Shown in pieces: positions 53,553-58,889 of a stretch of DNA of 64,000 nt. The notes under the pieces were generated by a model that saw nothing but the letters and a program-made list of their open reading frames with translations, did no database searches and was not told the DNA's origin. Position numbers and translations under genes: made by a program. Origin of the DNA: an uncultured euryarchaeote (GTDB lineage Archaea; Thermoplasmatota; Poseidoniia; Poseidoniales; Poseidoniaceae); assembly GCA_937892945.1 (NCBI GenBank), contig CALBIL010000039.1, positions 89,125-153,124 on the forward strand. Direction: 5' to 3'. The number at the start of each line of letters is the position of its first letter. Position 1 is the first letter of the stretch.

Positions 53553-54680
53553 TTACTTCTTGTTCTTTGCAAACAGTTTACGATGGCCGTTTGCCCCTCG
53601 TATTGCATCTGTGATTCCCAAAAACAATCCTTGCCATAATGCTATGCTCCATCGAAGAGTAAGGTTTCGAATTTTGTAAATTGTTAACAGTGACCACTTT
53701 CCTTGTTTGATGGCACCACGGTTTACAACGCCAAGCGGGCCTCGCCAAAGAACGAATTCATGAATCAACATCAACCCTAATGTTACCAATAGAAGCCGAG
53801 TCTGCCACCAAGACTTTGCGAGTTCCCAAGACCAATCTGGTTGCGTGAGAAATGAAAAGAGAAACGGAATTCCTGTTGCGAGAACCATGACCCAAAGGGG
53901 AAATACGGTAAGAACAAATGTGGAACTCCCGATAAAATCTAATTCAGGCCCCTGGCGTTTCCCTCGTGGGAATTGGCGCATAATTCGCATATGAGCCCGA
54001 GCATCACGTCGACGTTTTGCTAAGAAGCGTGATGATTCAGTTTCAGGGACATGATGTACGACTGCATCAGGTGCGTAAACGATTGTGCCACCATTTGCAA
54101 TAAGTCGTAGGCTCACCTCCATATCTTCAGCATGATACCAAGCCGGATTGAAACCACCAATCTCTAACAATTTCTCTCGTTCAAACATTGAGCAGGGACC
54201 ATTCGCGAGACTGGTTCGCCGTGGGCGTGAACGGTATTTGGTTGCGATTTCAACAGAACGTACACGACTTACGATATCACCCGCATGTTCAAAAACAGTA
54301 CGGCCAGTAATGGCAACAACCTTTTCTTGAAGATCTATTGGTCGAGTTTCAAGAACCATATTTGAAATCCAATCGGGTTCGGGCCGCACATCGATATCAG
54401 TGATGGCAACCCATTTCCCTTGTGCTTGCTCGACCGCTAACTGTCGACCTGCGGAGAGTCCCTTGGCACCTTGAGTTGATATTCGGATTGGGATGTCACT
54501 CTCCTTCTGATGCCATGCAAGTAATTTTTCTTTTGAACCATCACTTGAACCATCATCAATTCCAATGATTTCCAATGGCCGATAGGTCTGAGCGACAAGG
54601 GATTCGAGACATCCATCGATCCAATCTACCCCGTCCCGCACACATACTGTGACGCTAACGAGCGGGTTTTTCTCCGACAC
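53553..54680 (-). CDS. Glycosyltransferase family 2 with C-terminal TMs
   Basis: VSVTV, DDGSSDGS, TDID, GGF...AEDME and RRRDA motifs. GTG start shares a base with the upstream TAG. Confidence 0.88.
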   Translation of the reverse strand: MSEKNPLVSVTVCVRDGVDWIDGCLESLVAQTYRPLEIIGIDDGSSDGSKEKLLAWHQKESDIPIRISTQGAKGLSAGRQLAVEQAQGKWVAITDIDVRPEPDWISNMVLETRPIDLQEKVVAITGRTVFEHAGDIVSRVRSVEIATKYRSRPRRTSLANGPCSMFEREKLLEIGGFNPAWYHAEDMEVSLRLIANGGTIVYAPDAVVHHVPETESSRFLAKRRRDARAHMRIMRQFPRGKRQGPELDFIGSSTFVLTVFPLWVMVLATGIPFLFSFLTQPDWSWELAKSWWQTRLLLVTLGLMLIHEFVLWRGPLGVVNRGAIKQGKWSLLTIYKIRNLTLRWSIALWQGLFLGITDAIRGANGHRKLFAKNKK

Positions 54681-55699
54681 TAAACCACCTCGAAAAGTGA
54701 AAGAAGGAACCGACACCGTTGTTTGACTTCCAGTGTTGTGTATTGAACAACAACGCCAGTTTTCGGTTGTCCATACAAGACTAATGTTCCAATAGGAGCG
54801 AAACAATGAATGATGAGAGGTGCTAAATCTTCTTCACCTTCGACTTCCAATACGAGTGTTTCTTCAGCGAGTAATGCAGTAGAAATTGCTTGATTGAGAG
54901 ATGGAGTAAGGAAACCTGCTGGGTTTTCAGCATGAATCTGGTGGTGGAACCGATTGGGGTTTACTTTGAGACTTGGTTCCAATTCGGTACGTTTTGTTTG
55001 CCCATCAATGAGGGCAATATCTGGAGTGAGTCCCATATCAAGCATAGTTTTTGTAGTGACATCTCCAACTGTGATTATCGCTCCATGAGGCGATGGCAAT
55101 CCATCTAATGCTGCAGTCATTCCGATTTCAGGGTCATTTTCAGGCCCTTCGAATAAAATTCCCATGGGTGTCTTCAGTTCTTGGTCAAGAGCTGATGCCA
55201 TTTTCAATTTACTTTCACGTAATTTACGGGGCATCCAAGGATGCCCTTCTCTGTCCATATGGCCGTTTCGAATCGCAGAGGAACTGATGATTCCACCTTC
55301 AACTGCATCCAAGTGCATGACTTCAATGACATGTAAAGACGCGAGTCCATTCTTTATTCGTTCTTCATTGATGAATGCGCACATGCCAATCGTTTCTGGT
55401 GTTGCCACAATTGCATCTGCTGTAGAGTGGTGTCGAGCAGGGCCATAGTCATCATTGAGTTGATGCACTGAAATTTTACAGCCCTGAATCCGATTGGCCC
55501 AATTGTGCAATTCATCCATTCGGTCATCAAAGGATTGGACAAATGGAGATTTTTCTTCCGCCATCACATCTGATGTGATATGAATTTCTACGGCCTCCGC
55601 ATTTTTACTTGCAGCATTGAGTAGTAATCGATGGCCGGCATGAAGTCGGTCAAATGTGCCTCCAACAAGGCAACAGCGAAAACGCCGAGCAGAGGGCAT
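54680..55699 (-). CDS. coaD: Phosphopantetheine adenylyltransferase + GTP-dependent dephospho-CoA kinase (DUF359) fusion
   Basis: GGTFDRLHAGH and ISSSAIR (PPAT); LKTPMG, TVGDVT, DGQTKR, NPAG, VEGEEDL and YGQP (DUF359). Confidence 0.9.
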   Translation of the reverse strand: MPSARRFRCCLVGGTFDRLHAGHRLLLNAASKNAEAVEIHITSDVMAEEKSPFVQSFDDRMDELHNWANRIQGCKISVHQLNDDYGPARHHSTADAIVATPETIGMCAFINEERIKNGLASLHVIEVMHLDAVEGGIISSSAIRNGHMDREGHPWMPRKLRESKLKMASALDQELKTPMGILFEGPENDPEIGMTAALDGLPSPHGAIITVGDVTTKTMLDMGLTPDIALIDGQTKRTELEPSLKVNPNRFHHQIHAENPAGFLTPSLNQAISTALLAEETLVLEVEGEEDLAPLIIHCFAPIGTLVLYGQPKTGVVVQYTTLEVKQRCRFLLSLFEVV

Positions 55700-55789
55700 A
55701 AGTCGTGGTGAATTGAACCGCTCTTTGATTGCATCGCTTGTTTGGTGCCCAAGCAGTGCGATTTGGAATGCAAGAGAATTGAACGAGGA

Positions 55790-56054
55790 GCTGTACCCCG
55801 ACGCGTAACGGCCCTTTTCATAGCGAAGCTCGAGGGCCTGACCCAGCGTCAGGGTTTATGCTGTCCAGTTGGTTGGTTGTCTCGTGTTCATCCTGTCGTC
55901 GCACGAGGACCCATTACCTACCGGTTGGTTTACCGCCTTGCACCGAAAGTCATTCCCCGAGGGGTCACTTCAGTCTTCGATAGCGGACCGTACCATTGGT
56001 ATCGGACTTCACAGCAATTTTCACAGTAGCTCTGCCAGATGTTGCGGGTACGGC
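55790..56054. ncRNA. Unassigned structured RNA candidate (~265 nt)
   Basis: Intergenic and GC-richer than its surroundings; terminal helix 55790-55809/56041-56054 enclosing at least five hairpins. Confidence 0.55.
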
Positions 56055-56093
56055 AATCGAATCCTGCGGCCTACCCCTTTTCAAGTCATCGAA

Positions 56094-58616
56094 TTATTCT
56101 AATTTCGATGCAAAGGAACGGGCATAGAGCAATGCACCAATCTCAGGCTCACCTTGGCTGAGTACTTCCAAGCCCATAGGGGGCCAAGAATCCACTGATC
56201 GTGCCAACCAACCTACAAGAGGGTGCGTGCGGCCATAATGGACAGGTTCTTGACGTTCTGAAGTAGCGAGCATATCGTAGACATCTAGCAATGCCGGTTT
56301 TCCTTTTTTGTCTTCGAGAAGCAGAATATGGAGCACCTCATCTAGGCCAACCCGCCCTGCTGGATATGGGATTGGCCACGCAGGCAACCCTCCCCGCTCA
56401 CCCGCAGGTCGTGTTAACAGCGCAGGCCATGGCAACGGAGTTGCTGACAACCATCGGCGGCCTGATGATGATGTGAGTTGAACCTGTAACCAGTCTCCCG
56501 CCCATGCTCTCCACCAATCAGATGGGAGTTTGGTCATAACCTTTCGAAGAAATTCTGGTGTTATGGGCTCATTTGATTCCATGTTCTCCAGCAACGTACT
56601 CCAAAGAGAAAGTATGGAATCATGCGGATGTACCTTTGCTGCAGCTTTGCATTGTATCAAACACTCCTCAACATGATTCGACAGCGGTAGGCCGATTGGA
56701 AATAAGGATTCCAAAACTTGCTTTGGTTGGCGAGGGGCATCAACCCATAGGCTGCAGGCCTGTTCAAGGAGTGGATGAAATTCTTCAGGCAGTTGCCCCG
56801 AAGCGAGTAGAACAGCAGTCGCCATCCAAGGGCCAAGTACCTCATCTTGAAAGAAAGATTCGTATCTGAGTATAGACTCGACATTATTGGTAAACCGTTG
56901 ACGCGTTTTTTCCAATGCATGAAGGCTCCATTCTTCGGAACCTTTCGGCATTGCGCTGATGAGGGTAGCAGTTTCACAGAGTTCGATTGGTAGCAGATCG
57001 GCCCATCCATTCGGAAGAATGGTACGCAATCGTATCCAACGTGAAGTTCGGTGTTCAAGGGGTGTAGCAATCCAAGCGGCTAACGGATAGGTGCTTTCAT
57101 TGAGGTTTGCCCAGTTCTCATCTCCTTCCGGATAGTTTGAGAGCGCATGCCAAATCGCTTTTTGGCGGTTCGTATCCGGTTCAGTTCCAGTGAATCGTTC
57201 TTTTCTCATGCCTTCATTGTGGTCCCAAGCTTGAACCAGTTCATTGGCTGAAGAAGGCACTTCTTCATGCATATTCTGTTGAGACGGCCCTGCTGTAGAT
57301 TGAAGTAATGAAAGTGGTAATATCTTGCCACGGCCGAGATTTATGGCTGCCTTCATCAATGTCTTTTGAGTTCGGATAACGGAGGTAGCTGAAATGAGAG
57401 GTGAATAATCTCCATGGGATGTGATGAGCAGCCGGCAGCGGCCAGACGACAGTATCCTCTCGAGAATACGGCGGTTCTCTTCAAGCGAATATGGCCATTC
57501 AACAGCGCACTCTTGCGTCGAGTTTTGGAAATACCATTCAACCAATGCCAAAGCCCCAGCATTTGATATGCCTGAGAAATTGATATTTGTGATTGTACCC
57601 CCTTCTCGCCATTCTACAATCCCAAAATCTCCGAGCAATTGTCTTTGGAGGGCAATCGATGGAGAACTTCCATCTGGCTGGAGCAAGTAGGTTCGTAATT
57701 CTTTATTTTTCCGAGTCAGTTTTTCTTCACTCAGGCGTGGATGCCTGGCTCTTAACCAGTAGTAAAGGGCCTCATGGGGTAAATACCGGGTGATTCGTTG
57801 TTGAGGCCGTTCTTCAAACACAAGGGCGTTTTTCCGTACTGCATTGAGTACCATGGCTCTGTTTACTGGTAGGCGAAGGTGCGCATGAATGCCATGCTTG
57901 GGGGATACTGCGATTTCAGTACCTGTTGCTGTACCAATTACATATTCTCCCTGCACCAATGTATTTGGCAAAGCCGGTGGAGTTTCAGGTTCTCTATACC
58001 ATGTGCCCGGACTGAGTAACCATTCTCGGCTGGTGTCGAGTAGAGTTGCGTGGAGTATTCCGATGCGGTCGATTTCTTCAGTCCACTCCTCGAGAGTGCC
58101 TGGTGAGTTTTGTGTACGTGGTGCATCAGTCACTTGCAAATCCGTCAGTGTATACCACCTGATGGGCTCATTGCGTTGAACCGCCCAACGCCCCCCTTGG
58201 CTTCCAGTGGAGACAGAAGGGGTCTCTACTTGACTCGATAATCCCTGATTTGGCAATGAAAGCAATCGCGAGCGAGGAGTTTTCACATAACCAAGTAAGA
58301 GGTGAGGTCCATCTTGGCCGAGAACAATTGCTTCTGCTTGCGCAGGGATTTGAGTAAGGAGGGTGCGTGTACGCGCCAACGCATCATTTGCTAAACGTGC
58401 CCGACCTGCTTCATTGAGGCGGTGGATTGCGCCGCGAATGCTTCCTTGTTCATCTCGGCTGACTTCTTGCCGTTCACGTAGTTGGCGCAGGGCTAAGGAG
58501 GCGTGGGGCATTCGTAATTGGAGTGACTCTGCGATCTCAGTAACCGTGCCTCCTCCGTCCATAAGCCAGTTTAGGACTCGGCGTTGATGGCCACTTCGAA
58601 TCCGTTCTCCTGACAT
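56094..58616 (-). CDS. Large protein with N-terminal winged-helix (MarR/ArsR-like) DNA-binding domain
   Basis: RVLNWL..GGTVTEIAESLQLRMPHASLALRQLRE...L...GR HTH; the remaining ~750 aa are Trp/Pro-rich and unassigned. Confidence 0.7.
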   Translation of the reverse strand: MSGERIRSGHQRRVLNWLMDGGGTVTEIAESLQLRMPHASLALRQLRERQEVSRDEQGSIRGAIHRLNEAGRARLANDALARTRTLLTQIPAQAEAIVLGQDGPHLLLGYVKTPRSRLLSLPNQGLSSQVETPSVSTGSQGGRWAVQRNEPIRWYTLTDLQVTDAPRTQNSPGTLEEWTEEIDRIGILHATLLDTSREWLLSPGTWYREPETPPALPNTLVQGEYVIGTATGTEIAVSPKHGIHAHLRLPVNRAMVLNAVRKNALVFEERPQQRITRYLPHEALYYWLRARHPRLSEEKLTRKNKELRTYLLQPDGSSPSIALQRQLLGDFGIVEWREGGTITNINFSGISNAGALALVEWYFQNSTQECAVEWPYSLEENRRILERILSSGRCRLLITSHGDYSPLISATSVIRTQKTLMKAAINLGRGKILPLSLLQSTAGPSQQNMHEEVPSSANELVQAWDHNEGMRKERFTGTEPDTNRQKAIWHALSNYPEGDENWANLNESTYPLAAWIATPLEHRTSRWIRLRTILPNGWADLLPIELCETATLISAMPKGSEEWSLHALEKTRQRFTNNVESILRYESFFQDEVLGPWMATAVLLASGQLPEEFHPLLEQACSLWVDAPRQPKQVLESLFPIGLPLSNHVEECLIQCKAAAKVHPHDSILSLWSTLLENMESNEPITPEFLRKVMTKLPSDWWRAWAGDWLQVQLTSSSGRRWLSATPLPWPALLTRPAGERGGLPAWPIPYPAGRVGLDEVLHILLLEDKKGKPALLDVYDMLATSERQEPVHYGRTHPLVGWLARSVDSWPPMGLEVLSQGEPEIGALLYARSFASKLE

Positions 58617-58889
58617 CAAAAGACACCTTGTTCCTACGCTAGAGTCGCTTGTTGATAAAACCTACAGTCTGTGCCGCAATATAGTTACATTTAGTTACGC
58701 ATTTCCACTGGAGAAAGTTTCTTTTTACTTACATACAAGGCGAGAGGTGTGAAAAAAACACTCAAACGGTATATCAATTGTAACTATCAACTGATTTCTA
58801 CGGCAAGGGTTATATGAGCACCCTCGGTCATCTGTCTTAGTGGCCGAACTCCTTTGCGGGAAACGGCCTCATGACAGGAGGAGCAATAC

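Follow-up and report, generated by a model that had tools for sequence, protein, structure and literature searches.

A conserved RNA gene of Poseidoniales (Marine Group II) very probably encodes a four-hairpin box H/ACA guide related to HgcG/Pab40

What kind of RNA is encoded in the conserved block of 265 nucleotides (nt) that lies between a gene for an 841-amino-acid (aa) protein and a gene of coenzyme A (CoA) synthesis in an uncultured euryarchaeote of the Poseidoniales? The block is found in a stretch of 64,000 nt (assembly GCA_937892945.1, contig CALBIL010000039.1, positions 89,125 to 153,124), which is called the window here, and a preliminary description made from the letters of the DNA had taken it for a highly structured RNA of a new class, possibly derived from a ribozyme. 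Comparison with related genomes gives a different answer. The block is a real and conserved RNA gene on the minus strand at 55791..56055 (265 nt; RNA position r is 56056 minus the window coordinate), and its product is very probably a box H/ACA pseudouridylation guide small RNA (sRNA) of the Poseidoniales (Marine Group II). The sRNA is a divergent relative of HgcG/Pab40/Pf7/Afu4, that is, it belongs to a known class of RNA and not to a new one. It departs from the textbook build of this class in that it has four hairpins instead of one to three and in that an ACA box is lacking in two units whose pocket and kink-turn geometry is canonical.

The limits and the strand of the gene are evident from its relatives. 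When 61 related genomes were searched at the DNA level, 30 of the 36 other genomes of the same genus proved to contain the element, with identities of 75-97% (97% in the relative G009), and in the alignment of 30 genus copies the conservation is limited abruptly, starting with TGCCGTACC and ending with ...GGGG(U/C)ACAG, which corresponds to 56055 -> 55791 of the window, while the flanks are unrelated. The sharply bounded block of the preliminary description is thereby retained, with its limits of 55790-56054 corrected by one base. The strand, which had been called unresolved, is settled as the minus strand: by our own sum of the covariation table about 131 of the 1837 alignment cells are G-U pairs, and these turn into A-C mismatches when the plus strand is read.

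The structure of the RNA is shown by covariation, not by stability. The minus strand folds with a z score of -0.34 and the plus strand with one of +0.04 against 200 shuffles, minimum-free-energy folds miss the true structure, and the attribute "highly structured" does not hold as far as the folding energy is concerned. In contrast, the genus alignment contains 62 base pairs in 10 helices, which are paired in 94.1% of the cases versus 30-44% after a shift of the partner by 1-3 columns. Compensatory changes on both sides occur within the genus in 23 of the 62 pairs, and none of 500 shuffles reaches the observed values. Among the nine helices first drawn for this RNA, GGCCCT/AGGGCC, CTCGTG/CACGAG and CCC/GGG covary and form part of the structure, but the other six show no covariation. 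The closing helix GCTGTACCC/GGGTACGGC with its extension GTAAC/GTTGC has no compensatory pair, nor have CTGAC/GTCAG, TGCTGT/ACAGCA, CGGT/ACCG and CCGTACC/GGTATCGG; taken together in minus-strand orientation, the six have 0 of 35 both-side changes and a covariation score that is reached by 469 of 500 shuffles. A motif TTC(G)ATAGCG, which had been noticed twice, is a coincidence, one copy lying in the variable kink-loop of the last hairpin (D) and the other being the lower stem plus pocket of the second (B).

All four hairpins, designated A to D from the 5' end, follow the same plan: above the lower stem there is an internal loop, called the pocket, and the upper stem that continues from it bears a kink-turn (A and B) or kink-loop (C and D), all on the minus strand. 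Hairpin A (55987..56054, r2-69) consists of the lower stem GCCGUACC/GGUACGGU, the pocket strands CGCAAC (56046-56041) and ACCAAU (56000-55995), the upper stem AUCUGGC/GUCCGAU and a kink-turn made of GA (56032-56031) and UGU-GA (56010-56009), and it has no ACA after it. Hairpin B (55933..55986, r70-123) has a lower stem of only 4 base pairs (bp), CCGC/GCGG, the pocket UAUCGAAG (55982-55975)/GCAAG (55941-55937), the upper stem ACUGAAG/UUUCGGU and a true kink-turn, GA-CCC(CUCG)GGG-AAU-GA. On its 3' side follows the linker UAAACCAA (55925..55932), which contains an ANA word, AAA, 10-11 nt from the pocket top, and whose AAACCA matches the eukaryotic H-box pattern ANANNA; the linker is conserved in the genus and not in other families, in which hairpin B often abuts C. 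Hairpin C (r132-191; 55862..55924 including the ACA at 55864-55862) is composed of the lower stem CCGGUAGGU/ACCAACUGG, the pocket AAUGGGUC (55915-55908)/ACAACCA (55880-55874), the upper stem CUCGUG/CACGAG and a kink-loop C-GA...GA-A. Hairpin D (r201-261; 55792..55855 including the ACA at 55794-55792) is composed of the lower stem ACCCUGACGC/GCGUCGGGGU, the pocket UGGGUCA (55845-55839)/GUUAC (55809-55805), the upper stem GGCCCU/AGGGCC and a kink-loop C-GA...GA-AA.

These features may be compared with the published rules for archaeal H/ACA motifs: a lower stem of 7-9 bp, a distal G:A that stands 9-10 positions above the base of the upper stem (8-11 in natural motifs), an ACA or ANA 15 +/- 1 nt from the target U and a minimum of 8 guide-target pairs, 3 or more of them on either side (PMC7075261, PMC4652768, PMC7991803, PMC2377435). 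The number of hairpins per RNA is one to three (PMC7075261, PMC7991803). In the Poseidoniales RNA the lower stem has 7-8 bp in A, 8-9 bp in C and 9-10 bp in D, but only 4 bp in B in the genus and, by eye, about 5-7 in other families. Counted on the sequence, the distal G:A is 10 positions above the foot of the upper stem in A and B and 9 in C and D, and the ACA lies 16 nt from the pocket top in C and 15 nt in D. The GA...GA letters of the four predicted kink motifs and both ACA boxes are invariant in all 29 genus sequences compared. Moreover, the stems vary while the pockets stay fixed.

The element is not confined to one genus. Two half covariance models were used, R1 for hairpins C+D and R2 for hairpins A+B. 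R1 detects one copy each in 148 of 151 Poseidoniales genomes, covering 22 of 22 genera and all three families, and when 20 other genera were represented by one copy each, R2 matched immediately before R1 in every one of them (E 3.5e-27 to 0.037), with the three weakest matches poorly aligned. The full layout is kept in every locus inspected. The order-wide alignments show both-side changes in 29 of 31 pairs of A+B (90.5% paired; 16 of 17 pairs in hairpin A) and in 28 of 31 pairs of C+D (92.7% paired), figures that lean towards R1 and R2 since the alignments were fitted to these models. ACA is present in 24 of 26 order-wide rows after hairpin C and in 25 of 26 after hairpin D. The pocket of hairpin A, GCAAC/ACC, is constant in every well-aligned row, and like that of hairpin B (CGAAG/GCAA) it is constant across the three families while every surrounding helix changes. 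A 14-letter scan of a public sequence collection gave mostly chance bacterial matches, and 9 of 13 tested loci were confirmed by R1 and alone retained. The two representatives of the small family f2 (loci L077 and L078), which have the lowest scores with both half models, carry CCUAC and CCUGC instead of ACA after hairpin C, and the 3' end of L077 is ACCA.

To which family does such an RNA belong? A default scan of the whole window with Rfam at gathering scores gave no match, and a search of the window for tRNA and tmRNA genes found none; that the RNA matches neither RNase P nor the signal recognition particle (SRP) RNA had been correctly seen. A permissive scan of 55600-56200 returned a sole match, which is on the minus strand and spans the whole length of the model of HgcG (Pab40, RF00064); with 16 bits and E 0.031 it is far below the gathering score of 77. 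The same family is matched by two of 20 homologous loci from other genera with 42.9 bits (E 1.8e-8) and 34.5 bits (E 6.8e-6), the former aligning to model positions 58-276, which are the three hairpins of HgcG; the remaining 18 of the 20 loci have no RF00064 match at E<=10. The cmscan alignment pairs hairpins B, C and D with the three HgcG hairpins, B corresponding to HgcG hairpin 1. A match to a known Rfam family had been named as the finding that would remove the novelty; such a match exists, though only below the gathering score. The missing match at gathering score, together with the ability of the ends to pair in the single sequence, would suit a structured RNA of a new class that stands alone, or the remnant of a ribozyme, with a long-range helix joining its two ends. 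This explanation is barely credible: the terminal helix and the other long-range pairings are those with 0 of 35 compensatory pairs, whereas covariation, invariant loops, GA motifs, ACA boxes and the complementarity to ribosomal RNA (rRNA) described below are all accounted for by the model of four H/ACA hairpins. Neither a ribozyme relic nor the group-I-like RNA formerly suggested finds a place here, all four hairpins having the H/ACA build and the only Rfam match being HgcG/Pab40.

An H/ACA guide should have targets in a stable RNA. The window's own assembly (100 contigs, 93.9% complete) gives no rRNA match, and for this reason the targets were read on the 16S and 23S rRNA of five relatives, by a scan of 16S and 23S of G009 for two-part complementarity flanking an unpaired U-N; Escherichia coli (E. 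coli) numbers come from the alignment of the relatives' sites to an E. coli 23S rRNA. Hairpin D fits GUAAC-UA-UGACCC at G009 23S 1894, which is E. coli U1915 in helix 69 (5+6 bp). Hairpin B fits CUUGC-UA-CUUCGAUG at 2468, which is E. coli 2496 (5+8 bp), and hairpin C fits GGUUGU-UC-GCCCAUUA at 2527, which is E. coli U2555 in the A-loop (6+8 bp), with a weaker second site at 2558, which is E. coli 2586 (4+4 bp). For hairpin A, a tentative site GGU-UU-GUUGC is found at 2578, which is E. coli 2606 (3+5 bp). When only the fixed pocket letters are used, each guide has exactly one full match in the 16S and 23S rRNA of G009, and the number of 2000 shuffles that give any match is 37 for A, 4 for B, 5 for C (with G-U allowed) and 1 for D; the figure for A is optimistic because its guide segment was fixed after the candidate site had been seen. 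The four target sites are identical in four further genera.

The predicted products differ in firmness. Hairpin D probably directs the modification of U1915, and a second product is probably U1917, since its unpaired UAUG would fit the UVUN arrangement used by Haloferax sR-h45. Hairpin B is predicted to act on position 2496 by the peptidyl-transferase centre, hairpin C on U2555 or U2554 of the A-loop and perhaps also on U2586, and hairpin A, tentatively, on U2606 or U2605. An earlier candidate pocket of hairpin A, with the upper stem opened and directed to 23S 2547 (E. coli 2575), was rejected; its letters form the covarying upper stem and are unconserved in other families. In addition, a genome-wide pattern search with a perfect 4+5 target of hairpin A yielded fewer matches than the reversed control.

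The sites can be compared with those of known guides after conversion of the numbering. We take E. coli 2457, 2605 and 2580 to be the equivalents of the sites of the Pyrococcus abyssi (P. abyssi) guide Pab35, which results in an offset of 92, and by this offset P. abyssi 2588 would be E. coli 2496, 2647 would be 2555, 2678 would be 2586 and 2698 would be 2606. Likewise Haloferax 2605 is presumably E. coli 2586, going by the Haloarcula numbering. The three-motif guides HgcG/Pab40/Pf7/Pho40/Afu4 of Thermococcales and Archaeoglobus (RF00064) are, like the Poseidoniales sRNA, multi-hairpin RNAs with kink-turns or kink-loops, and P. abyssi 23S 2588 is assigned to Pab40 motif 1 and 2016 in stem-loop 69 to motif 3 (PMC2377435). 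By the inferred equivalence of 2588 and 2496, Pab40 motif 1 and hairpin B would share the same 23S site, and Pab40 motif 3 and hairpin D are both aimed at the loop of helix 69. Motif 2 differs between species, and for Afu4 the equivalent of P. abyssi 2647 was first proposed, 2678 being preferred by the authors (PMC2377435). Under the offset both proposed sites (2647 ~ 2555 and 2678 ~ 2586) are the two with which hairpin C can pair. Because order and targets agree under the offset of 92, hairpins B, C and D may on that basis be regarded as the counterparts of motifs 1, 2 and 3 of Pab40/Afu4 and hairpin A as an added 5' unit. The relationship is distant, as is seen not only from the score and from this fourth 5' hairpin, but also from the lower stem of hairpin B (4 bp vs 8 in the HgcG family) and from the ACA that follows each hairpin of the Rfam HgcG consensus, whereas A and B of the Poseidoniales RNA have none at the canonical distance.

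Other guides resemble single units. The 3' stem-loop of Haloferax volcanii sR-h45, which needs its ACA, guides the helix-69 pseudouridines 1940 and 1942 via an unpaired UVUN, and hairpin D is like it in that UAUG is unpaired or partly paired in the helix-69 loop and a 3' ACA is present (PMC7075261). As in sR-h45, one molecule would serve helix 69 and domain V in the Poseidoniales, but the hairpins of sR-h45 are only two in number and stand apart, with 56 nt and an H box between them (PMC7075261). The other target of sR-h45 is Haloferax 2605 (PMC7075261), and to its presumed equivalent hairpin C could pair only weakly, as a second choice. For hairpin A the comparison is with Pab35 motif 2, which guides P. 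abyssi 23S 2697, beside 2698, a position often pseudouridylated in eukaryotes (PMC2377435); by our offset these sites would be E. coli 2605/2606, the predicted site of hairpin A. Pab35 motif 2 is part of a separate RNA with a canonical ACA motif (PMC2377435), and no sequence relation between it and hairpin A, whose match comprises 8 bp, was found. Finally, the H/ACA-like sRNAs of Pyrobaculum have kink-turn guide hairpins that depart from the canonical lower stem and ACA, as do A and B, but they are single hairpins with a truncated lower stem and free single strands, whereas A (7-8 bp) and B (4 bp) keep lower stems (PMC4652768).

Of the core proteins of a guide ribonucleoprotein (RNP), three have a gene over the cut-off in the window's genome, namely Cbf5 (315 bits, cut-off 238), Nop10 (41.8 bits, cut-off 27.2) and an L7Ae-family protein (43.9 bits, cut-off 22.1). 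Gar1 (PF04410) is over the cut-off in none of 41 genomes of the order, that of the window included, with a model that misses one of four archaeal controls; the order may have a divergent Gar1 or none. Weak PF04410 matches of 16.7-23.2 bits occur in 20 of the 41 genomes, inside open frames of 126-444 aa.

With the structure, conservation, complementarity and protein genes given by this analysis, a mechanism can be outlined from established knowledge of archaeal H/ACA RNPs, in which the binding of proteins, the catalysis, the actual pseudouridines and the activity of A and B without ACA are hypothetical. A TATA-like box would stand about 25 nt before the start of the sRNA, whose end would come just behind the 3' ACA. 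L7Ae would bind the kink-turn or kink-loop of each hairpin, and Cbf5-Nop10, with Gar1 if present, would dock on the upper stem and, in the case of C and D, also on the lower stem and ACA. Both strands of each internal loop would then pair with 23S rRNA flanking the unpaired U-N, and Cbf5 would turn the U into pseudouridine. In A and B, in which single-stranded ACA is lacking because the next hairpin follows at once, the enzyme might be held in position through L7Ae-Nop10 on the kink-turn and through stacking against the adjacent hairpin. On this outline the RNA might be an all-in-one guide of four units, with A and B active without an ACA/ANA anchor for the PUA domain of Cbf5, and would be the first archaeal H/ACA sRNA with four guide units; the chances of this are judged to be somewhat less than even. 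A literature search of incomplete coverage found no four-stem-loop or ACA-less archaeal H/ACA RNA and no H/ACA RNA of Marine Group II.

Several observations weigh against the assignment as a whole or against the activity of all four units. To the missing rRNA in the own assembly, the Rfam result and the failure to detect Gar1 are added the expression data, in which one RNA-library contig extends 57 nt past the predicted 5' end and the contigs are blind to strand and ends, and the pocket strands of hairpin C, which differ in four genera (UAGGUC or AAGGUC with ACUACC) and there fit the A-loop poorly. Further points concern A and B and also form the case for a rival explanation, according to which only C and D are working guides and A and B are inactive relics or have non-catalytic functions as L7Ae-binding stabilisers of the RNA or as folding chaperones pairing with 23S rRNA. 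Hairpins A and B have no ACA/ANA at the canonical distance, with no ANA 14-16 nt from either pocket: after A there is none and the lower stem of hairpin B begins after 14 nt, and after B there is the AAA at 10-11 nt in the genus and nothing consistent elsewhere. The lower stem of hairpin B is 4 bp here versus the canonical 7-9, and the target match of hairpin A amounts to 3+5 bp, that is only 8 bp, with an "invariant" segment chosen after the site had been seen. In a two-hairpin guide of Haloferax, the 5' stem-loop depends on the ANA of the internal box, the H box (PMC7075261). On the other hand, the pocket letters of A and B are fixed across three families while the helices around them change, which argues for selection on base-pairing to a fixed partner; the site of B is experimentally shown for Pab40 motif 1 (PMC2377435); a single-hairpin guide is active without ACA in the typical configuration (PMC7075261); and the spacing from pocket to kink-turn is canonical in both hairpins. 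It is considered unlikely that A and B are only relics or non-catalytic elements.

The variation of hairpin C deserves a separate description. In L081, L084, L086 and L088 (genera g5, g8, g10 and g12) AUGGGUC is changed to UAGGUC or AAGGUC and ACAACC to ACUACC together, and the A-loop of 23S rRNA is unchanged in the three of these genera that have a readable 23S. Either the unit is retargeted in these genera or the changed letters pair together.

Is the RNA expressed from a gene of its own, or is it the leader of the gene behind it? The sRNA lies on the same strand as the PPAT/dephospho-CoA kinase (DPCK) gene and 91 nt upstream of its start, and the gene order 841-aa gene -> RNA -> PPAT/DPCK gene is conserved, with the upstream gene present in 26 of 26 loci from three families and the downstream gene next to the RNA in 25 of 26, a contig end cutting the locus in the exceptional case. 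From this arrangement one might think of a cis-acting leader (riboswitch or attenuator) of the PPAT/DPCK gene, or of an RNA made only within that mRNA, and the window copy has in fact no run of at least 4 T within 40 nt downstream. Such T-runs are nevertheless present within 40 nt downstream in 17 of 27 same-genus loci, the conservation breaks off directly behind the 3' ACA, and the letters between the RNA and the gene are unconserved. In addition, no riboswitch of Rfam is matched and all four pockets match rRNA.

Moreover, the RNA has its own promoter-like box at 56077..56091 on the minus strand, which comprises CGATG (56091-56087) and a TATA-like TTGAAAAG (56084-56077) and is 22-29 nt upstream of the 5' end. 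The TATA-like word, already pointed out in the preliminary description, is real: a word TT[GC]A[AT]A stands at -29/-28 in 18 of 27 same-genus loci, the remaining loci have, by eye, variant words at about the same place (TTCATTTA, TTCATGTA, TTTGATTA or TTTAAGAG, read in 8, and TTCAAGAA, read in 2), and most of the upstream TATA-like words of the 27 loci are preceded by (C/A)GATG. Similar words, TTGAAA or TTCAAA, were seen by eye upstream in several other genera. The earlier view of a stand-alone, conserved and structured RNA gene with its own promoter-like box was right.

Metatranscriptome contigs point in the same direction. Part of the stretch is contained in twelve RNA-library runs from marine, seawater or aquatic samples, and of four runs compared with the stretch three give short contigs confined to or centred on the RNA: one of 263 nt on 55814-56048 with a depth of 818.8, which is about 260-fold that of a contig of the neighbouring gene (3.14); one of 185 nt from another study, on 55863-56047 and identical to the window; and one of 308 nt from a third study, on 55805-56112. 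These contigs indicate presence in RNA libraries, not strand or ends, with uncovered parts, and the small shares of words in the remaining runs, counted neither way, and they are a hint of expression of the RNA; the difference in depth also speaks against a leader. It is therefore highly improbable that the RNA is a leader or is made only within the PPAT/DPCK mRNA, and the conserved gene order is all that could point to a partnership with the 841-aa protein or to a riboswitch for CoA.

As an H/ACA guide, a supposed unknown structured RNA is now assigned to a well-understood class, and the assignment gives the first predicted map of guided pseudouridines for the uncultured Marine Group II, with sites at the functional centre of the ribosome: in helix 69, in the A-loop and around the peptidyl-transferase centre. 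If A and B are active, they would bear on the debated requirement of ACA in the loading of Cbf5, and guided pseudouridylation without ACA would then occur naturally, and throughout an order, in archaea other than Pyrobaculum. Furthermore, the Rfam model of HgcG misses the Poseidoniales lineage and could be broadened.

Some features of the surroundings remain to be described. A Cdc6/Orc1 gene is located nearby and marks the organism as an archaeon. The flanking open reading frames are both on the minus strand, the 841-aa protein at 56094-58619 and a 339-aa fusion at 54680-55699, the latter being a single polypeptide of an archaeal phosphopantetheine adenylyltransferase (PPAT; NF001985, 126 bits) and a DUF359 GTP-dependent dephospho-CoA kinase. 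The 841-aa protein has no Pfam family and gives only a sub-threshold N-terminal match to an ArsR-type winged helix (E 3e-4). Its sequence changes quickly, with 25-37% identity between genera, yet the position of its gene directly before the sRNA and the PPAT/DPCK gene is kept in each of the 26 loci inspected (L002-L089), which come from three families. In the five relatives used for the targets (G003, G009, G016, G020 and G032; loci L031-L040), 16S and 23S lie on different contigs, and the two rRNA genes are probably unlinked in them.

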